Shown: piece by piece, positions 53,134 to 63,499 of the stretch
Position numbering within the stretch: the stretch's first letter is position 1
How the letters are laid out: each line of letters begins with the position of its first letter
DNA from: Botryllus schlosseri
Lineage: Eukaryota
Length of the DNA: 64,000 bases
Assembly: GCA_051294905.1 (NCBI GenBank)
Contig: CM119371.1
Coordinates: forward strand, 27,282,001-27,346,000
Direction: 5' to 3'
The notes under the pieces: generated by a model
The model's database searches: none
The model's input: only the letters and a program-made list of their open reading frames with translations
Told to the model about the DNA's origin: nothing
Made by a program: the position numbers and the translations under genes

Positions 53134-54494
53134 CAGGGGTTCTCAACTTCCCATGTATAACAGACCGCATTTTAGCAGCAAAAGACGCCGCGGGCCGCAG
53201 ATTTTTATTACCATGTATTTGTTGGCTACTATTAAATTTAAGCTACTGTAGCCTATATTTGCTAGTCGTATACGGGCGTTTAGTATATTGTTATGAATTC
53301 TATGGCAATAATGGACAGCTTTCGTAAGTTCGCAGTTGCTGTTTTATGTGAGAATGTGTTTCTCCCAGCGGCGCATTATGGTAACTTCTTCGTTACTTAG
53401 AGGCCAATATCACTTTGAGCTCTCAGTGATAAGAGAAGTCTGGCGTTTCAGGGTCAGCAATAGTTACTGAAGTCAGCTTTGTCAAGTCGATGTTTTTCGC
53501 TGGTCAATATTCCCTATAATTTTTCACGAGTCTGCGCGCACTCACCAACTCACTGCACGGTCTGTTGCACAGCAGTGCATAAGGACTAAATACAAAAAGG
53601 TCATCACTTCGGATTTTTGTGCGCAGCTCAAATTTTCTGTGCGCAGCGACTGTGTCAGCACTGCGCAATTGCGCACGTGCGAAGCTTAGAGGAAACCCAT
53701 CCCCACGTTTGCCTTGCCAACATTTCCTCTGTAAACATGTCCACTCTGATAAAATGCACCCAGATAATTAGCTATGCAACGTCTGTGGAATCGATGGATT
53801 CGTCCAATGCTAGGCTAATATGGTCTACGCGGCGACGTGTAATAAGAGATCGACTGACATTGCTGCTACTCTTTTGATCACGGTTGCCTCATACAACCGT
53901 AGCTTTGAAATTTGTCATGTGATGGTATCATTGATGCTAAGTTGTGGAAACGGCGAATATTCGCACAGTATGTTATATTTTTTTTTTGGAATTACGCCTT
54001 CTCTAGCAGATTGCCTTGGTTTAGCGATATTACAACGAGTCTGTAACGTCGTCGGCAATTTTAACAATGCCTCGAAATATGGATTGTTCGGCTTGAGACA
54101 TAGCTAGCAACGTTTTTCAAGATCAGGCGATATGCATAACTCCGAAAGAAACATTCGGTACATCATTTTAAGCTTCTACCCTTTGTTACGACAATTGTTC
54201 TTCGACAAATATGACAAATCGGATTTCCATTTGTATCGGAGAAAGTAAAATAATTTTTTCACGCAGTGTGTTACAAACACAGTTGTCGCCGTTTAATTTC
54301 CCGTTCCTTTTTCTTGCTTCTGTTCAAACCATTCTCAGTGAGTGAAACACTCTTCAAAAGTGTACTGGAAACGCAGCGGGATTCTCAACCCGAGTCCAAA
54401 GAAGAATGCCAATTTAAAAAAATATAAACTCGAGAATATCTCAAGAAACCATAACACATCAAAGAATGAGTATTCAAACGACAATAGAGACGGT
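53134..54494 (-). pseudogene. Degenerate Buster/Charlie-type hAT transposon (GTF2IRD2/EPM2AIP1-like transposase relic), apparently interrupted by the Polinton
   Basis: TIR-like CAGGGGTTCTCAAC at 53134; minus-strand ISLALDESIDSTDVA*LIIWVHFI (53820-53748; cf. SLALDESTD..D.AQL) and YFTFSDTNGNPICHICRR zinc finger (~54250-54200); no partner TIR before 54495. Confidence 0.8.
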
Positions 54495-54652
54495 AGTAGT
54501 GTAATTGTGGTCCCGTGATTCGTAAAATACCGGAAACAAGAATGTTGCATTTCGGAAGTCAGAAACGGTGCATTTTGAGCTAGCTAGTGGTCGAAAATCG
54601 GCCTATGGAGCTTCGAAAAAGCGTCATTGTGCGCTTCCCGCGATCGATTTTG

Positions 54653-54915
54653 AAAACAGGTGTTTTAATGCGAAGTGACCTACATATTCTGCGGAGACAA
54701 ATGACTATGGTATCCTGTCCACTGAAATCACTACGCGAATTGCTTCCCGTGGAACAGGTTGGACTAGAAGCAATCCGTGAGCGTAAAACAGGTGTTTTAA
54801 TGCGAAGTGACCTACATATTCTGCGGAGACAAATGACTATGGTATCCTGTCCACTGAAATCACTACGCGAATTGCTCCCCGTGGAACAGGTTGTCGAAAA
54901 GCAATCGTGAGCGTA
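54653..54915 (+). repeat. 2 x 132-bp subterminal tandem repeat of the Polinton
   Basis: AAAACAGGTGTTTTAATGCG... at 54653 and 54785, nearly identical over the first ~108 bp. Confidence 0.95.
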
Positions 54916-55045
54916 CACAATCCGTAGCAAATACAACCGCTCAGGGCAAAACTGGCTCACTGTGTTAAGTATATCACGAATCACATATGACACGAAAATA
55001 TGCATCAACCATTGTGTATTGTGAAACAGTAGACACACATACATA

Positions 55046-55642
55046 TCATTCTTGTAACTCTAGAATTCGAGTTAACTGGTCAATCTTTAATCTTCCATCC
55101 TGATTTTTGACGCGCGTTAGTGCATACTTTCTCCCTTTTTTTAAACCAGGCGAGGTCCATTGATCGAGTTTGACAGTTCCGGTGTCATCGCTTAACGTAA
55201 AACTATGTAGTTTGAGGTCTTCGCCATTGACGGGGATGGATTTTTCCTCATGGTCGGTACATATCGCATTGATTGAAATATATTTTTCGCTGCCTATATT
55301 GTTACAGCTTACAACGGCGTATTCGTCTGGGGTGTGTTTTGATCTGCCATGAATAGTAACAGACGAACTGCGACCGAGTAGCAAAGTAGGTTCCCCTGAA
55401 AACTTATCGAGTCGAGCCCAGGCTGTTTTGATGAGTACTCGCTTCCGTTTCCTAAAAGCTTTTTCGATGGCTTTGAACAGTTCTTGGTTGAAACAAGTGA
55501 AGGGTATAGTATTGTTCTCGTTGTCTATAAATACACCTTTCAGGTAACTACTAACGAGCCCCTTTTTCGGGGAGGAAACAAACTTTACTGCAAGCCGCAG
55601 GTCCGATGATTTTCCAATGGCCAATCCTTGTATACTCTCCAT
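55046..55642 (-). CDS. Putative tandem OB-fold (RPA-like) ssDNA-binding protein, 198 aa
   Basis: FTLSDDTGTVKLDQW matches the OB-fold L-x-D-x-T-G-x-I-x-L-x-x-W motif; N-half has analogous FIDNENNTIPFTCF; TATAAAA ~45 nt upstream. Confidence 0.7.
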   Translation of the reverse strand: MESIQGLAIGKSSDLRLAVKFVSSPKKGLVSSYLKGVFIDNENNTIPFTCFNQELFKAIEKAFRKRKRVLIKTAWARLDKFSGEPTLLLGRSSSVTIHGRSKHTPDEYAVVSCNNIGSEKYISINAICTDHEEKSIPVNGEDLKLHSFTLSDDTGTVKLDQWTSPGLKKGRKYALTRVKNQDGRLKIDQLTRILELQE

Positions 55643-55686
55643 TGCTATGATGTCCAGATAATGATCATTGTCGCGGGTTACTCGTA

Positions 55687-55709
55687 TTTTATAGACCTAG
55701 TCACGTGAC
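55687..55709 (-). promoter_or_regulatory. Candidate promoter of the OB-fold gene: palindromic E-box GTCACGTGAC and TATAAAA
   Basis: GTCACGTGAC at 55700-55709; minus-strand TATAAAA at 55693-55687. Confidence 0.5.
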
Positions 55710-56170
55710 CATAAACGCGTAGTTACTCGGTTTAGAAGTTTGATGAATCGCCTGAACAGACTTGGTTTGAAATAATCCTTGCAGGAATTCTGTAAATAAA
55801 ATCATAGTGATAGTTTTATGATTGTGTAGTCTGAAATTCAGCATACCCAATCATTTGTCAGTGAGATAAAGTGTGTATTCAAGAATTTCGATGATACATC
55901 TGTGTACAATGAGATAGTATGAACATCACTTTTCATAGCTGCGATCGCTACAATGCACATAACACCATTCCAGTCCACACCGTACCCCAGAATCGCGTTG
56001 GTTAATGATGTGAAATCACATTTTTCGATGCTCTCAACAATTTGATCAGATATGTATAAATCAACGATATCGTGAACCAACTGTTCTGTTTCGCTCAAAT
56101 CAGGGACAGGTAAATGGTGATGGTGAAGTAGATAATTTTCTATAATCACTCGGGTATAAGTTGAGTCCAT
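55701..56170 (-). CDS. Putative viral Bcl-2-like protein, predicted two exons (56170-55847, 55790-55701), 137 aa
   Basis: BH4-like TRVIIENYL, BH1-like ILGYGVDWNGVMCIVAIA, BH2-like FISLTNDW|NSCKDYF after removing a 56-nt GTATGC...TTTTATTTACAG intron. Confidence 0.6.
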
Positions 56171-56298
56171 ATTGTGTAGTTACTGACAATAAAAACTGTG
56201 AAAATTCCGGTAATTAAGTGATCGTACATCGGAAATTAGAATGAATAAAAGGTTGTTATAATAAACAGAGTAACACGATATGAAATAGGAAGAAGGTG

Positions 56299-56336
56299 CG
56301 CGTGGCGGGAAAGAGGAAGTAGTTCTGAATAAATAG
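56299..56336. promoter_or_regulatory. Candidate bidirectional promoter: E2F-type GGCGGGAAA, ETS-type GAGGAAGT, TATA-like AATAAATA
   Basis: Motifs at 56304-56312, 56313-56320 and ~56328, between divergent ATGs at 56170 and 56422. Confidence 0.4.
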
Positions 56337-56421
56337 GTCCTCAGTAAACTGGTAAATCCCACTCGCTCATACCGAATATCATCCGTTGATCAGTATACCT
56401 CGATTTTAATTTGTGTTAATC

Positions 56422-57309
56422 ATGGCCCAGGCTCAGTTGAACAGATTTAATACCCTCGGGTATGAACCTAATTCTTTTGAACTACAATTTGAAGAGGATG
56501 CAGATATTTTGGAGGCCCTCCTACCCGAAGACCTCGTTGCTTCAACGACAGAGGTCGTTGAGTGTGATTCCACGACCCCTATCGAAAACCAACCGCCTCA
56601 CCGTGACATCACATTACAGGCATGGCTGGAATCGCGTGGTTCGAACCAAGTTGCGGTTGACAACCCGACAACCTCGGGTTCGAACTTACCCCTTCCAGAT
56701 GAACCGACAACTTCAGCTGTGTTACCAGTTGAGAAACCGTCAACTCCTCGTAAGATTTTTCCAAAATCTAGAGTTCGATCCGCGGTACCATCTGACAAAC
56801 CGACGACCTCTCGAAGGTTATTTTCTGGCCTACCAAAACCACAGATCCCAATCGAGAAACCATCAAGTTCTAGAAAGCGAGATGTACCCACAACCTCGCA
56901 ACAAACCAGTGCACCTCCGTGTAAAAAGATATGTCTCTCTAAATCGAAACAAAAAACTTTGGTTCTTAACCAGGAGAAACTCAGCGAGGGTGAAGATCGG
57001 CCGAAGACATCGCGAGGGAGACGACAAGAGGAGAAGATATGTCTGTACACCGCCAACAAAATTCGAGACCATCTCAAGACTCTTGAAGTGGTCAGACCAC
57101 ACCTAGGCGTGATTCTAGGTTTAATTGATTCCCTTACAGAAAAGAAGAAACCTTCCCTACAGAAAATCATTCTTGAAATAAAAAAGCTATTGGCTTCGGC
57201 TATTGAACGCAGTGATCTTGATCAGATTCAAAACCAACTGAACGATGCAACCAACCAATTCCTGAACCAGCTCTTAACAATTAGAACCACCTTGAAATAT
57301 AATTTGTGA
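56422..57309 (+). CDS. Polinton accessory protein (~295 aa): acidic N-terminus, disordered P/S/T-rich middle, basic NLS-like segment, helical C-terminus
   Basis: Long open frame, first ATG at 56422; repeated PTTS/PSSS/PKTS; PPCKK; leucine-periodic C-terminus. Confidence 0.8.
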   Translation: MAQAQLNRFNTLGYEPNSFELQFEEDADILEALLPEDLVASTTEVVECDSTTPIENQPPHRDITLQAWLESRGSNQVAVDNPTTSGSNLPLPDEPTTSAVLPVEKPSTPRKIFPKSRVRSAVPSDKPTTSRRLFSGLPKPQIPIEKPSSSRKRDVPTTSQQTSAPPCKKICLSKSKQKTLVLNQEKLSEGEDRPKTSRGRRQEEKICLYTANKIRDHLKTLEVVRPHLGVILGLIDSLTEKKKPSLQKIILEIKKLLASAIERSDLDQIQNQLNDATNQFLNQLLTIRTTLKYNL

Positions 57310-57520: not shown

Positions 57521-57817
57521 GTAAGTATACACTGATCTTATTCAATAAACCAAAAGTTTGTGTTAACGTGATGTTTTCTTGCTTCATCGAAACAGAGAAA
57601 GAGAAGAATCAACCCCAATCATCGAACTTATTGCATCGGTGAGTTCTCTGTTTTTACTACCTTAAGTTGGTGAACATAATTTTGAGGAAGGTTGTTTCTT
57701 TGCTTACCAGGTGAAAAAGAACTCAAGATTTCAAGAGAAAAAATATAAGTAAGTATTACTATCTCGTTGATTACTAGAATACAGAGTGTGAAATTGAAAT
57801 CGAATTCAATGTTACAG
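57521..57817 (+). other. Three predicted short introns (57521-57595, 57639-57710, 57749-57817) upstream of polB
   Basis: Donors GTAAGT, GTGAGT, GTAAGT alternate with CAG acceptors at 75/72/69-nt spacing; last acceptor abuts the ATG at 57818. Confidence 0.6.
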
Positions 57818-60800
57818 ATGAGCCGTCGCAGAAGACACCGTATCCGTGAGGAAGATGAATTTCCACCAGATATTGGTGATGAACGTCAAGAAATTTTAAC
57901 ACAGAACTGGCAAGCCATAAAATCGTATGTAGCAAACATAGGCAGATCTCGAGTGGTGTACAATATTCGGATTATAAATCGTCAACTCTTGGCTGTTCGC
58001 GAGGACATTGAAGCGATATTCTTCTCTGAATCATATAGATTTAAAGTCAACTATTCATATGGCTGTATCCTATACCACACCGAGACTCTGAGATATCGTT
58101 ATTTTCATGCATCGTCAAATATCGATCGTGTTCTGGATATGCCATTGGCTATTTCGTCATTGATACAGTTTGAAAAATTTGTAGAATCCATTAAATTGGA
58201 AACTGCATTTGATGTATTGCGTAAAGCCCGACCTGATACTAAATCACAACCTGTTTGTCTAACAAATATACAGTTTTACATATTCCCTAGTGATCGGTTA
58301 TTGATAGGGTGTGCTGATGTTAAACTTCCTCTGTGGCTTACAAAATCGAAATGTGTCTTGACACTACTTTACGATAAAAATCGTAATCGGTATAATGATA
58401 ATCTGTGTGTATTTCGTTGCATTGGACACTCACTCGATCGTGATGCGAAATCACTGGCTCAACAGTATACCCAGGTTTATGGTGTGAACGTTGTTGGTGG
58501 TGTAACTTTTGAGATGTTACCTGACATCGAGACATTGTTTGATGTAGCTATATCTGTCTATCGTAAGACCGATGGTAAAGCTATTGCTGTCCGACGTAGT
58601 ACTTATGTAGCCACTCCTGTTTATTTACACCTCGAAAATTCTCATGCTTGCTTGATAACTCAGATCAATCGATACCTCGAAAGCTATCATTGTGAATCTT
58701 GTGGAAAATTTTTCGATATTGCAACCCATCTGACCAGGCACAACTGCATCACTGAACCTGTCGAGATATTTCCCGGCGGGATATATAGACCACCTTTGAC
58801 GGTATTTGAACGAATGGAGATTGAAGGCATAATTGTCCCAAATCATTTACGTTTTTTCAAATATCGGATTGCCTTCGATATCGAGAGTATGTTTCAACAA
58901 TGTGATTTTGATCCCTCAGCTAAAACGACTTACGAGTGGAAGCATATTCCAATTTCCGTTAGTATATCATCAAATGTAGACGGGTATTTGGAACCACAAG
59001 TAATTGTTTCGAATGGTGACCCAATTCAGTTGTGTGAAGAGATGGTAGAGATTTTTCATACAATTCAGAGTCGATCCTTCAGTCTGTTGCTAGTTGAATA
59101 CCGTCAATATCTCGATTTGTTTGAATCTAAAATCACAGAGATGAAAGTATTAGACCCCTCGGACAAGCCTTTACCATTGGAACGTTTACAAGATGAATTC
59201 ATGTGCTATCTAAGGCAAATACCAGTTATATCTTTTAATGGTGGTAGATACGATTTGAACTGTCTTAAGGTATACTTGCTGCGTTTTTTCGTTGATGAAA
59301 ACTTGAATGTTTTGAAGCGTGGTAACACATTTCTCTCGCTAACTACGAACAGGCTTCGTTTCCTCGATATCGTCAATTACTTGGCACCTGGTTTTTCTTA
59401 TGAAAAATATCTGAAAGCGTTCAAATGTAGTGGTGGAAAGGGTCATTTTCCATATGAATTTCTGACTAGTATTGAACTGTTAGATTACCCTATGCTCCCG
59501 AATCATCAGTCATTTTATAGCTCGATAAAACGTTGTAATATATCGAAAGCTGATTATGAAAACTGCCTCAAGGTTTGGAATGATCATAATATGACATCGC
59601 TTCGTGACTATCTAAAATGGTACAATGCAATTGACACACACTACTTCATTGAAGGCCTAGAAAAGCAATTCGACTCTTTCAAGTCTCAATTTAATGTGGA
59701 TATATTTAAAGAAGCTGTCTCGCTGCCGGGTGTGGTTTCGAGGCATATATTCAATTCCATTCCAAGGTACTTTACCTTGTTCAGTGAAAAGCATAAAGAT
59801 CTAGCTTTACTTTTTCGTGAAAATCTTGTCGGTGGCCCCTCAATCATCTTTAATCGGTATCAAAAAAGGGGGGAAACTCGCATAAAACAACTTTTCTATG
59901 GTAAAGATGCGGAAATAACACAGTATATAACAGGTATGGACTGCAATTCGATGTACTTGAAAGCAGTATCGATTGCGTCACCCGCAGGCTATCCCATTCA
60001 TTGGAAAAGCCTTGATAACGAGTGTTCTAAATTTAAACCGGTTAAGACTGCTCCTACCTTTGGTCATAAAGCACATGAATGGATACAGTACTATTCTCAT
60101 GTTCATGGTGTACATGTCCACCATGCTTTCAACGGGTCTGAAGTAAGAATAGGATCCAAGGGGTACCCTGCAGATGGCTTCTACCGTGACTCATCAGGTC
60201 GAGGCGTTGTGTTATCATTTCTGGGATGTTTCTACCATTCTCACAGTAAATGCCGCTTTTCGTATGACGACCCGACGCGTCGAGAACGAACAGAACGTGT
60301 ACATTCATATTACAGAAGCCTAGGGCATCGTGTTATCACGATGTGGGAATGTCACTGGGATATCTCTAAACGTGAAAACTCCGAAATCACTCAATTTATA
60401 AACAGTGTTCGACCTCGATTGATTCGCAACAAGTCACTAACAGCTCATAAGTTGATTGAAATGGTGTTAGATGGAACGTTCTTTGGGGCTTTACTGGTTG
60501 ATATTTACACTCCTTCCCATTTGAAAAGATATTTTTCTGAACTGTGTCCAATATTCAAAAACACCCTTGTCTCACGTAACGACTTGAAAGGTCACATGAA
60601 GCAATTTGCTATTGATCACAACCTATTACCAACACCAACACGTATGTTGGTTGCATCGTACTATGGCCAGAGAATTCTTTTGTCATCGACATTGATAAAA
60701 TGGTATATAGAACATGGTCTAATTGTTTCACGGGTATACGAGGCAATTGAGTTTACAAAATCAACTTGTTTTGACGGTTTCGCAAAAACTGTCTCTGACG

Positions 60801-61669
60801 CGAGACGCCTAGGGGACCGCGACCAAGACAAGGAAATTATTGCCTTGACTCATAAGCTTTCTGGGAATGTGATATATGGGAAGATGATAATGAACCCCCT
60901 CAAATTTAAACGAACCAGTTTTTGTGATAAAAGTCAATTGCGGAGAAATGTCAATGATCCGTTTTTTGTGAATGTAGAAGACTTGAGCTCCAATTTATAC
61001 GAAGTAACCAAAAGGCCTAAAAAAATAAAATGGAATACTTGCATTCACGTCGGATGGTTCGTCTATCAATACGCGAAGGAGCAATTACTATCGTTTTTTT
61101 ACGACTGTCTCTGTGCGTACTTTGATGACAGGAAATGGACTTCCTTAATGTGCGATACTGACTCGATCTACGTCGGGCATTCAGCTTCTTTCGATGATAT
61201 GCTAATCCCAGAAAAAAGATCTGAATTTTATCTGAATTACGAAAAATGGTTCCCACGCTATTTTTGTGACCAACATAGAAATGAGTTCCTGTCCAACCCA
61301 ACCTCATTCGATCGAACGAGACAATGTTGTAAAGATGTCTATGCATACTTTCTACGGGAACCAGGTTTGTTCAAGGTCGAATACGAGGATGGCACTGCAT
61401 TTTGTGGTCTCCAGTCGAAAAATTACTTTTGTGATGGTCCAAAACAAAAGTATGCCTCGAAAGGTCTTCAGAAATCTGGTCAAGTAAATTTTGAAGCATT
61501 CCTTGAAGTATTGACATCTCAAAAACCTATGGGGGGTCATAATAGAGGTTTCAGAGTTCATAATAATGGTATTTACACGTACCAGCAGCATCGCGATACC
61601 TTGTCTTATTTTTACGCCAAGCGTCATGTTCTGGACGATGGCGTCACCACTATTCCGTTGAATGTGTAA
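57818..61669 (+). CDS. polB: Protein-primed family B DNA polymerase (N-terminal/terminal-protein region, vOTU-like domain, Zn finger, 3'-5' exonuclease, Vsr-like insert, polymerase)
   Basis: Exo motifs FDIE, FNGGRYD, KGHFPY, YNAID; GGPS, DCNSMY, KLSGNVIYGK, DTDS; frame open from 57767, likely start ATG 57818 (alternative 57809). Confidence 0.97.
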   Translation: MSRRRRHRIREEDEFPPDIGDERQEILTQNWQAIKSYVANIGRSRVVYNIRIINRQLLAVREDIEAIFFSESYRFKVNYSYGCILYHTETLRYRYFHASSNIDRVLDMPLAISSLIQFEKFVESIKLETAFDVLRKARPDTKSQPVCLTNIQFYIFPSDRLLIGCADVKLPLWLTKSKCVLTLLYDKNRNRYNDNLCVFRCIGHSLDRDAKSLAQQYTQVYGVNVVGGVTFEMLPDIETLFDVAISVYRKTDGKAIAVRRSTYVATPVYLHLENSHACLITQINRYLESYHCESCGKFFDIATHLTRHNCITEPVEIFPGGIYRPPLTVFERMEIEGIIVPNHLRFFKYRIAFDIESMFQQCDFDPSAKTTYEWKHIPISVSISSNVDGYLEPQVIVSNGDPIQLCEEMVEIFHTIQSRSFSLLLVEYRQYLDLFESKITEMKVLDPSDKPLPLERLQDEFMCYLRQIPVISFNGGRYDLNCLKVYLLRFFVDENLNVLKRGNTFLSLTTNRLRFLDIVNYLAPGFSYEKYLKAFKCSGGKGHFPYEFLTSIELLDYPMLPNHQSFYSSIKRCNISKADYENCLKVWNDHNMTSLRDYLKWYNAIDTHYFIEGLEKQFDSFKSQFNVDIFKEAVSLPGVVSRHIFNSIPRYFTLFSEKHKDLALLFRENLVGGPSIIFNRYQKRGETRIKQLFYGKDAEITQYITGMDCNSMYLKAVSIASPAGYPIHWKSLDNECSKFKPVKTAPTFGHKAHEWIQYYSHVHGVHVHHAFNGSEVRIGSKGYPADGFYRDSSGRGVVLSFLGCFYHSHSKCRFSYDDPTRRERTERVHSYYRSLGHRVITMWECHWDISKRENSEITQFINSVRPRLIRNKSLTAHKLIEMVLDGTFFGALLVDIYTPSHLKRYFSELCPIFKNTLVSRNDLKGHMKQFAIDHNLLPTPTRMLVASYYGQRILLSSTLIKWYIEHGLIVSRVYEAIEFTKSTCFDGFAKTVSDARRLGDRDQDKEIIALTHKLSGNVIYGKMIMNPLKFKRTSFCDKSQLRRNVNDPFFVNVEDLSSNLYEVTKRPKKIKWNTCIHVGWFVYQYAKEQLLSFFYDCLCAYFDDRKWTSLMCDTDSIYVGHSASFDDMLIPEKRSEFYLNYEKWFPRYFCDQHRNEFLSNPTSFDRTRQCCKDVYAYFLREPGLFKVEYEDGTAFCGLQSKNYFCDGPKQKYASKGLQKSGQVNFEAFLEVLTSQKPMGGHNRGFRVHNNGIYTYQQHRDTLSYFYAKRHVLDDGVTTIPLNV

Positions 61670-61718: not shown

Positions 61719-62261
61719 ATGAATAGTGCAAGTTCTTTCATCAAATCTGTTTTAATAGAGTTAGATCTGGATACTTTGCATAAGCAAACCATTGGCTTGG
61801 AACAGGATTTAACGCAACACTCTATTGTCGGGACCCAGGACGAACCACTCACCGGTACGATATCCGACCGTCATTACAGAGAGCGCCTGAATCAGCTCGA
61901 GCAAAGATGGAACTCTATTCGTGAAATATGCATGGAAGCACTACTACAACTCCGATTCCCAGACCGCAAGCTACCGAGTGATCACCAAGACATTTTCAAT
62001 CGAGCCAAGCTGACGAATTATGTCGTTTTGGGTAAAACCAGGACTTGGATCCCACTTTTCGATAGGGAGGAAAAAAGAGCCAACTTCAAGAATTGTATGC
62101 GTGGACGTTCGTTGCAGTTCTTTCTCGACGACCATCGTGCCGCCAACTCTCGAAAACGATCTCATTCAGATTCGGAAAGCAGTGATGCTGGAACACAACC
62201 TTCTGAATTGAGAAATGATGGCTTCCCCGATAACTATAACTGTGCCGATCCCAATTTGTGA
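61719..62261 (+). CDS. Polinton hypothetical protein A (180 aa), paralog of the next gene
   Basis: ATG directly follows TTTTTCTTGTTTTCTCAG; aligns with the spliced product of 62379-62842. Confidence 0.8.
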   Translation: MNSASSFIKSVLIELDLDTLHKQTIGLEQDLTQHSIVGTQDEPLTGTISDRHYRERLNQLEQRWNSIREICMEALLQLRFPDRKLPSDHQDIFNRAKLTNYVVLGKTRTWIPLFDREEKRANFKNCMRGRSLQFFLDDHRAANSRKRSHSDSESSDAGTQPSELRNDGFPDNYNCADPNL

Positions 62262-62890: not shown

Positions 62891-63499
62891 ATGGAATTCA
62901 AGCATCCTTTCTCATTCATCCTATCTGGACCATCTCGTAGTGGTAAAACTACTTTCATCACTAAACTTATCAAGAATGCAGCCTCGATGATCAAACCTAA
63001 TATTTCTAGAATCGTGTACTGTTATAATAATTATCAGAGTATTTTTGAGACCATGCCCCAGGTTGAATTTTACAATGGATTGGAGATTTTGGAAGATCTT
63101 AAATCAAGTAATGAGGATGTATTGATAATAGTAGACGATTTTATGACTCAGACAGAAAAATTGGTAGAATATTTTATACGTATATCGCATCATAATCGAA
63201 AGTCAATAATTTTATGCACGCAGAATTTCCATCATCAGGGTAAAGGGGCTCGCGACCTTAGTCTATCAGCTATGTATGTCTGCCTGTTTAAAAATCCCAG
63301 AGATCAGAACCAAATATCCGTCTTGGGGCGTCAGATGTACCCAAAGTCTAAGTTTCTAACAGAATGTTATAGAGACGCTGTCAAGAGACCTCATTCGTAT
63401 TTGTGCCTGGATCTCACCCAAGAGTGCCCCGACGATAGACGGGTCATGACCAATATATTTCCAGGCGAAACATTGACTATTTACACTCAACCGGTATAA
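62891..63499 (+). CDS. A32/FtsK-like DNA packaging ATPase of Polintons
   Basis: HPF, Walker A GPSRSGKT, Walker B IIVDD, SHH...TQN, LFKNPRD, YLCLDL; TATA-like TATAAATA at ~62851. Confidence 0.95.
   Translation: MEFKHPFSFILSGPSRSGKTTFITKLIKNAASMIKPNISRIVYCYNNYQSIFETMPQVEFYNGLEILEDLKSSNEDVLIIVDDFMTQTEKLVEYFIRISHHNRKSIILCTQNFHHQGKGARDLSLSAMYVCLFKNPRDQNQISVLGRQMYPKSKFLTECYRDAVKRPHSYLCLDLTQECPDDRRVMTNIFPGETLTIYTQPV

Follow-up and report, generated by a model that had tools for sequence, protein, structure and literature searches.

The stretch of DNA analyzed here (the window) comprises 64,000 nucleotides (nt) of Botryllus schlosseri (GenBank assembly GCA_051294905.1, contig CM119371.1, positions 27,282,001 to 27,346,000 of the forward strand) and contains the left-hand part of a Polinton, one gene of which appears to be interrupted by a short intron. 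The gene lies on the minus strand, 1.2 kb inside the left end of the element, and begins as an open reading frame (ORF) of 110 amino acids (aa) at 56170..55838, with its ATG at 56170, its TGA stop at 55840..55838 and the C-terminal residues FISLTNDWVC. An initial annotation of this DNA, made from the letters alone, had proposed that the gene is Bcl-2-like and was captured from a host together with the intron that cellular Bcl-2 genes carry in their BH2 motif. The letters it cited were present: the ORF ends in NDW-VC, and the TGG codon that closes exon 1 (55849..55847) has GTATGC directly 3' of it. The features of the gene and its upstream flank were as follows:

55847..56170, minus strand: exon 1, 108 codons from ATG to TGG, predicted to be all-helical.
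55790..55846, minus strand: intron of 57 nt, GTATGC...TTTTATTTACAG, GT..AG, phase 0.
55700..55789, minus strand: exon 2, 30 codons, NSCKDYFKPSLF and then an amphipathic basic helix.
55697..55699, minus strand: stop codon TAG of the spliced gene.
56171..56421, no strand: divergent intergenic region between the gene and a 295-aa ORF.

The spliced reading frame runs from ...TNDW into NSCKDYFKPSLFRRFIKLLNRVTTRLWSRD and then to TAG, and the proposed splice from FISLTNDW into the NSCKDYF frame was found as claimed. An acceptor is also present downstream of the donor, as the string TTTTATTTACAG, but it ends at 55790, 57 nt past exon 1, and the intron is 57 nt long rather than the 56 nt first given. 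Other figures of the initial annotation needed similarly small corrections: the spliced product has 108 + 30 = 138 aa and not 137, the junction is 55847/55789 and not 55847/55790, and the last coding nucleotide of exon 2 is 55700 and not 55701. Two TGA stops lie in frame within the intron, and exon 2 has no in-frame start codon of its own. Putative promoters are presumably located in the divergent region at 56171..56421.

A protein search of the window's own 495-Mb assembly gave 121 matches to the gene, and 49 copies (L001-L049) were retrieved for comparison. Thirteen of the matches, the window copy included, had 93-100% identity, five had 80-83%, two partial copies had 86-91%, and the remainder, about 100 with fragments, were near 50%. 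Apparently more distant copies, at 39-45% identity, proved to be decayed members of the 50% lineage. The end of exon 1 was recognized by pattern in 42 of the 49 copies; the other seven were six truncated or decayed copies and L011, which was missed through one residue change and has a normal 57-nt GT..AG intron. The donor GT was present in 41 of the 42 scorable copies (TT in one), and the start of exon 2 was found 56-58 nt downstream in 40 copies, 39 of which had the acceptor AG (TG in one). The intron was 57 nt long in 25 copies, 58 nt in 14 and 56 nt in one, and read-through of an unspliced transcript could not reach the exon-2 frame in 32 of the 40, owing to a stop in the intron or to a length that is not a multiple of three. 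Exon 2 was open for exactly 30 codons in 31 of the 40 copies. Exon 1 of the 50% lineage likewise ends in GAY TGG, followed by GTAAG, and its intron consists of a diverged stretch, which occurs in two sequence variants, a pyrimidine run and the junction YAG/AAY YCN TGY (a slash in a motif here and below marks the exon boundary).

Substitution rates between the two lineages, obtained from 11 x 16 intact copies, indicated that both exons are constrained as coding sequence, with a ratio of non-synonymous to synonymous rates (dN/dS) of 0.13 for exon 1 and 0.32 for exon 2. Strong purifying selection was seen in exon-2 codons 1-12, in which the proportion of non-synonymous differences (pN) was 0.055 against a synonymous proportion (pS) of 0.68, and N1, Y6, F7, P9, S10, L11 and F12 of this exon were invariant across 15 copies. 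The last 18 codons changed freely (pN 0.49, pS 0.56), yet their amphipathic and basic character was kept. Between the lineages the intron was the least similar part at the nucleotide level (identity 0.58), against 0.67 for exon 1 and 0.69 for exon 2. The interruption has the properties of a spliceosomal intron, as GT..AG is kept, the length varies out of frame, the exons stay in frame and the intron is the most diverged part. The initial annotation had looked to conservation of the intron among sibling Polinton copies, and of the exon-2 frame among related elements, and both were found across lineages about 50% apart. Because the donor, the acceptor and the exon-2 frame are kept in the sibling copies, the gene and its splice are more than chance, and on these comparisons we regard it as very probable that the gene is real, selected and spliced.

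Relatives outside this genome were rare. A search of 1.84 billion protein representatives identified one true relative, a 51-aa fragment (P0001) that is 58% identical to residues 1-50 and lies on a contig of 1455 bases in a public run assembly; its sequence likeness suggests that the family is present in at least one further data set. The second match in that search (P0002), a tandem-repeat protein, was taken as spurious. Word-index searches with the family found no relative, and neither did scans of metagenome and viral contigs.

The genome of the same animal provided canonical Bcl-2 genes for comparison. It contains at least 150 full-length matches to the Pfam Bcl-2 model, at about 80 bits; of 290 candidates 150 were scored, and 149 of these were free of stops. 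In the canonical gene, exon 1 encodes 157 aa, among them LRRVGDEMF, ENWGRIV and WIVRNGGW; the TGG of the last motif is immediately followed by an intron of about 184 nt, and the second exon, of 37 aa, begins DGFVEFFDN... and contains a transmembrane tail (hydrophobic moment, muH, 0.20; mean hydrophobicity 0.65). A published account, in the part that was available, states that nearly every metazoan bcl-2 gene has this intron behind its TGG codon (PMC7527217). The premise that animal bcl-2 genes share a phase-0 intron after the BH2 tryptophan was thus upheld by the canonical gene (...NGGW/DGFVEFF) and, as far as that part of the account goes, by the literature.

The Polinton gene resembles the canonical gene in having a phase-0 intron after TGG, a short exon 2 (30 codons, against 37 in the canonical gene) and the pattern W/[DN]xxx[ED][YF]F across the junction. 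The two differ in that the canonical gene has 157 + 37 aa, an intron of about 184 nt, a match to PF00452 at 8.5e-23 and a transmembrane tail, whereas the Polinton gene has 108 + 30 aa, an intron of 57 nt, no profile match and a basic tail. A TGG followed by a phase-0 intron 30 codons before the stop is conserved in the Polinton family, and its tryptophan is a candidate BH2 Trp. After the junction, W/NSCKDYF, with the family pattern N-x-x-x-[DV]-Y-F, resembles W/DGFVEFF of the canonical gene, and a DWNG motif stands at the start of a hydrophobic helix, 41 residues before the intron Trp (51 in the canonical gene). Local alignments with BLOSUM45 placed W67 on the Trp of NWGR and W108 on the BH2 Trp, at a score that was still at chance level.

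No method revealed a significant similarity between the product and Bcl-2, and the results that weigh against kinship are given together here. The motif likenesses described above were picked by eye, after the fact. The BH4-like and BH1-like segments of the initial annotation can be read in the sequence, but when the protein was scored by alignment and by profile against canonical Bcl-2 it did no better than shuffled sequences: Smith-Waterman z values lay between -0.5 and 1.2 against 1000 shuffles, profile hidden Markov model scores in both directions (p 0.38 and 0.19) were at the level of 2000 shuffles, and the shuffle tests overall gave p 0.12-0.69. The profile-profile check that had been proposed, made by hhalign between the spliced family and the canonical copies, returned a probability of 0.2. 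Six family members, including four natural read-through ORFs that contain exon 2, gave no match to Pfam PF00452 at E<=10, the HMMER filters being liable to hide Pfam matches above about E 0.1; the E value of 8.5e-23 for the canonical gene is from the same test. No Bcl-2 match at E<=10 was obtained from a PDB phmmer search and two family-profile searches. A C-terminal transmembrane anchor is common, though not universal, in the Bcl-2 family, and none was detected in the product from the hydrophobicity and moment of its tail. The last 20 or so residues instead form, in the family copies, an amphipathic basic helix with a muH of 0.63-0.78 and a net charge of +3 to +5, and the initial annotation had been correct in seeing no transmembrane tail.

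Structure predictions gave no firmer link. The Bcl-2 fold has a central hydrophobic helical hairpin with amphipathic helices around it. Models were made of exon 1 alone and of a natural 154-aa read-through ORF of the other lineage, which contains exon 2 and a 19-aa intron stretch. AlphaFold gave the exon-1 model six helices and no other secondary structure at low confidence (predicted local distance difference test score, pLDDT, 49.7), and the read-through model was also of low confidence (pLDDT 41.8). Foldseek comparisons of both models with the PDB, and a comparison with BFVD, returned no match at E<=0.001. With the exon-1 model, ranks 1-9 in the PDB were all Bcl-2, A1 or Bcl-xL chains, at non-significant values (E 1.1-2.7, TM-score 0.23-0.31, root-mean-square deviation 11.5-13.1 A), and the Bcl-2 family made up 27 of the 45 rows shown; rank 8 in BFVD was "Bcl2 [Branchiostoma lancelet adintovirus]", likewise non-significant (E 3.3). 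With the second model, unrelated helical proteins led and Bcl-2-family chains appeared only at ranks 23, 31, 37, 44 and 50 (46 rows shown), and a sheeppox Bcl-2-like entry had a non-significant rank. Structural Z values against Bcl-2 chains were at most 3.1, in the noise range, an ESM Atlas search gave no Bcl-2 lead, and co-folding of exon 1 and exon 2 as two chains gave an ipSAE of 0.01. Together, the Pfam, PDB-profile, hhalign, shuffle, AlphaFold and structure comparisons gave no significant support to the claim that the protein is a Bcl-2 homologue or has its fold. The hints in favor of kinship are the place of the intron behind a Trp codon, the collinear order of the motifs and the non-significant Foldseek ranks of the exon-1 model.

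No spliced read or contig across the junction was found in the runs examined, and neither of two raw RNA runs had a read on the spliced gene. The first of these, of which about 6% was read, gave 7 reads, every one on the neighboring 198-aa gene (55301-55650), and the second gave no reads in the region at all. Two contig sets of guessed kind covered genes, intron and intergenic DNA evenly and crossed the intron unspliced; these sets are probably DNA, and the four runs together bear on neither splicing nor expression.

The element that carries the gene is a Polinton, as the initial annotation had held. This integrated, adintovirus-like element is complete and 15,410 bp long, with terminal inverted repeats (TIRs), a 6-bp target-site duplication, a putative protein-primed DNA polymerase, an A32-type ATPase and an rve integrase. 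Its other features in the window were as follows:

54489..54494, no strand: left copy of the 6-bp target-site duplication GACGGT; the right copy is at window-equivalent 69905-69910, 5,905-5,910 bases past the window end.
54495..54984, no strand: left TIR, which begins 5'-AGTAGTG and has an internal tandem duplication; its partner is at window-equivalent 69551-69904, about 5.6 kb past the window end.
55046..55642, minus strand: 198-aa ORF, the downstream neighbor of the spliced gene, with weak sub-threshold Pfam matches only.
56422..57309, plus strand: 295-aa ORF in the accessory region upstream of the polymerase, 39% identical between lineages.
57809..61669, plus strand: putative protein-primed family-B DNA polymerase, 1286 aa (Pfam DNA_pol_B_2, E 2.7e-4, 20.4 bits, below the cut-off of 25.8).
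62891..63499, plus strand: A32/FtsK-type packaging ATPase, 202 aa (Pfam Pox_A32, 4.3e-6, 26.8 bits, above the cut-off of 22.8).

The TIR arms match at 97% and 91% identity in inverted self-matches, and the element ends 5'-AGTAGTG...CACTACT-3' (5'-AG..CT-3') with GACGGT on both flanks. The polymerase translation contains FDIES, DCNSMY, KLSGNVIYG and CDTDS, which we take to be Exo I and motifs A, B and C of a family-B polymerase; a PDB search with this 1286-aa ORF was without match. Neither an LxCxE nor a CxxC motif was found in the 295-aa ORF. The integrase is a 358-aa ORF just past the window end (rve 3.3e-15, Chromo 9.8e-10) and is followed by ORFs of 277, 225, 130, 124, 423 and 148 aa, none of which had a Pfam match at E<=0.01. 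The 423-aa and 148-aa ORFs fit the size and order of jelly-roll capsid and adenain-like protease genes, and the latter had a weak match (E 0.19) to the S273R protease of African swine fever virus. The 277-, 225- and 130-aa ORFs (window-equivalent 65544-67440) are distant mutual paralogues, as cross-matches with the second lineage showed 25-39% identity. Two further ORFs, of 154 aa (minus strand) and 107 aa (plus strand), span the tandem duplication within the left TIR at window 54580-55044 and are probably not genes.

A full element of the 50% lineage (C7:26702709-26717857, 15.1 kb) was collinear with the window element. Amino acid identity between the two was 55% for the 198-aa gene, 53% for the spliced gene, 39% for the 295-aa ORF, 60.5% for the polymerase, 69% for the ATPase, 68% for the integrase, 80% for the 423-aa ORF and 70% for the 148-aa ORF. 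Eleven other genes are single uninterrupted ORFs whose lengths match in both lineages. The polymerase frame, one 1286-aa ORF in the window copy, is broken into ORFs of 478 and 698 aa in the C7 copy, and a 180-aa ORF at 61719-62261 is poorly conserved between lineages. The spliced gene is the only gene of the element that clearly needs a splice; the other clearly conserved genes are intronless.

The 198-aa gene stands in tandem with the spliced gene, about 55 nt apart, in both lineages. A PDB search with its protein was without match, and from composition our guess is an OB-fold DNA-binding protein. A conserved TCTATAAA box is found a few bases past the exon-2 stop and about 55 nt before the ATG of the 198-aa gene, at window 55660-55695 and in sibling copies; it may be the TATA box of the 198-aa gene, the poly(A) signal of the spliced gene, or both. 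Exon 2 extends to 41 codons in three copies of the 80-83% sub-lineage (L014, L016 and L019) and ends in ...QLTRILELQE or a near variant. This is the C-terminal end of the 198-aa protein, and a deletion has therefore fused the tail of the gene to the end of its neighbor. Homologues of the 198-aa gene, of which 150 were scored among 338 candidates, are frequently arranged in inverted pairs with a spacing of about 11 kb. One of them is held in a palindrome with 5.5-kb arms at 98% identity (C7:17297001-17311000), in which the spliced gene and all remaining Polinton genes are absent.

The canonical Bcl-2 copies also occur as inverted pairs, in near-perfect palindromes that span 6-25 kb. In one example the arms measure 11.9 kb and are 99.9% identical, and others are 15.4 kb and 6.4 kb in total. 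Examples of these palindromes are as follows:

C11:10083001-10109000: canonical Bcl-2 palindrome.
C1:28027412-28033808: canonical Bcl-2 palindrome.
C1:37901001-37921000: canonical Bcl-2 palindrome.

Bcl-2 is the sole recognizable ORF in them, and the subfamilies are 73-92% alike with pN/pS of about 0.3 between them, which indicates purifying selection. That the palindromes are parts of the Polinton was considered and rejected, as they have no DNA or protein similarity to the element. They may be an element of some kind, or an assembly effect. Canonical Bcl-2 in palindromes, in at least 150 copies under purifying selection, is possibly the more unusual feature of this genome.

To account for these observations, we propose that a transcript would begin in the divergent region ahead of the polymerase gene and run leftward, and that a spliceosomal intron of 56-58 nt would be removed from it in phase 0 directly after a Trp codon. 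The predicted product is an all-helical accessory protein of 138 aa, in which an amphipathic basic helix would take the place of a membrane anchor. The gene was most probably taken up as cellular DNA, because it is the sole intron-bearing gene in an otherwise intronless element, although the intron could also have been gained within the element. The single most likely source would be a Bcl-2-family gene, on account of the same intron phase, the TGG before the intron and the similar distance to the stop. The protein would then be a highly diverged viral Bcl-2-like protein lacking an anchor. Expressed early in the element cycle, it would delay the death of the host cell by acting at membranes or on partners from the host, either of the Bcl-2 family or of innate immunity; we infer the host capture and the cell-death role. 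We place the probability of this whole explanation, Bcl-2 ancestry included, at roughly 0.4, and the ancestry taken by itself is equally tentative. It is possible, and we put it forward with some doubt, that this Polinton lineage, with its more than 100 copies and two branches that differ by about 50%, harbors a descendant of Bcl-2 that escapes sequence, profile and structure prediction and is betrayed only by the BH2 intron and two Trp landmarks.

The chance-level outcome of all the formal Bcl-2 similarity tests is what would be expected if the gene encoded a lineage-specific helical accessory protein unrelated to Bcl-2, for instance another host-interaction or membrane-surface protein, host-derived or element-born, with the place of the intron and the motifs being coincidence. 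This reading agrees also with the failure of the Foldseek hint to recur with the second model, with three-dimensional models that are not Bcl-2-like, with an orphan family that has one 51-aa relative among 1.84 billion representatives, and with a tail that is not a Bcl-2-type anchor. It nevertheless names no alternative family, and it makes chance answer for the phase-0 intron after TGG, 30 codons before the stop and followed by N-x-x-x-[DV]-Y-F, for a D-W-N-G motif that opens a hydrophobic helix 41 residues before the intron, and for Bcl-2-family chains at Foldseek ranks 1-9 with the first model. We consider it somewhat unlikely. Less likely again is a replication-module helper with no role in cell death, which would cooperate with the 198-aa protein and the protein-primed polymerase in a task such as priming or the handling of origins. 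The tandem arrangement of the two genes in both lineages, their shared divergent placement relative to the ORFs leading into the polymerase gene and their equal rate of evolution (53% and 55% identity) would fit such a helper. However, searches of Pfam, the PDB and the ESM Atlas found no DNA-binding or replication-protein signature in the protein, the 198-aa neighbor is itself without a confirmed function, the palindromic derivatives retain the 198-aa gene without the spliced gene, and it would be surprising for the sole intron of the element to lie in a core replication gene.

The lack of a spliced read or contig, the contigs of two runs that cross the intron unspliced (though these resemble genomic DNA) and the conserved TCTATAAA box directly behind exon 2 would be accommodated if there were no splicing, the product being the 110-aa ORF ending in ...DWVC and the conservation of exon 2 having a different cause, for instance regulatory sequences of the gene downstream. 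We regard this as very improbable, because exon-2 codons 1-12 substitute as a coding frame does and that frame has no start codon, and because the donor GT (41 of 42 copies) and the acceptor AG (39 of 40) are retained, whereas the length of the intron varies from 56 to 58 nt and its sequence diverges most.

Known viral relatives of Bcl-2 offer partial parallels to the proposed Bcl-2-like Polinton protein. Poxvirus and other viral Bcl-2-fold proteins are small and all-helical, their kinship is invisible in sequence, and some are without a transmembrane anchor. The fold of the poxvirus-type proteins is established from solved structures, whereas that of the Polinton protein is represented by low-confidence models alone. 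Bcl2 and IAP homologues have been published in adintoviruses, animal Polinton-like viruses (Starrett et al. 2021, PMC8502044). To judge from the available part of that report, the adintovirus Bcl2 is likewise an accessory gene in an element with PolB, an rve integrase and an FtsK/A32 ATPase, for which an anti-apoptotic role was proposed, but the adintovirus genes were named by recognizable homology and the spliced family has no detectable sequence or profile similarity. The main text of the report, as available, uses "intron" once, in another context, and does not contain "splic". The vNr-13 gene of herpesvirus of turkeys is a viral Bcl-2 that keeps the cellular two-exon structure; as described in the accessible portion of its report, it resembles the Polinton gene in being virus-borne, with one intron, and in its proposed capture as cellular DNA (PMC7199394). 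It is, however, 64% identical to the host gene and has BH1-4 and a transmembrane domain according to the same portion, whereas the Polinton gene has no measurable homology and no transmembrane tail. In the available parts of the literature on Polinton and adintovirus Bcl-2, no Polinton Bcl-2-like gene was described as having an intron.

The spliced gene is the only one in its element that clearly requires the splicing machinery of the host, and it therefore points to DNA acquired from a cell and to a function directed at the host. Polintons (adintoviruses) are regarded as genuine viruses of animals, and their accessory genes are their least understood part. Should the protein not be Bcl-2, the family would be a clean and testable orphan. 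If it is a hidden relative of Bcl-2, a very diverged anti-death gene would be added to elements in which recognizable Bcl2 and IAP homologues are already known, with no new principle. The position of the intron would then serve as a molecular fossil by which captured host genes may be spotted in virus-like elements and, taken with the palindromic canonical family, it would imply at least two separate uptakes of Bcl-2 genes, in the form of genomic DNA, by the mobile DNA of this animal.

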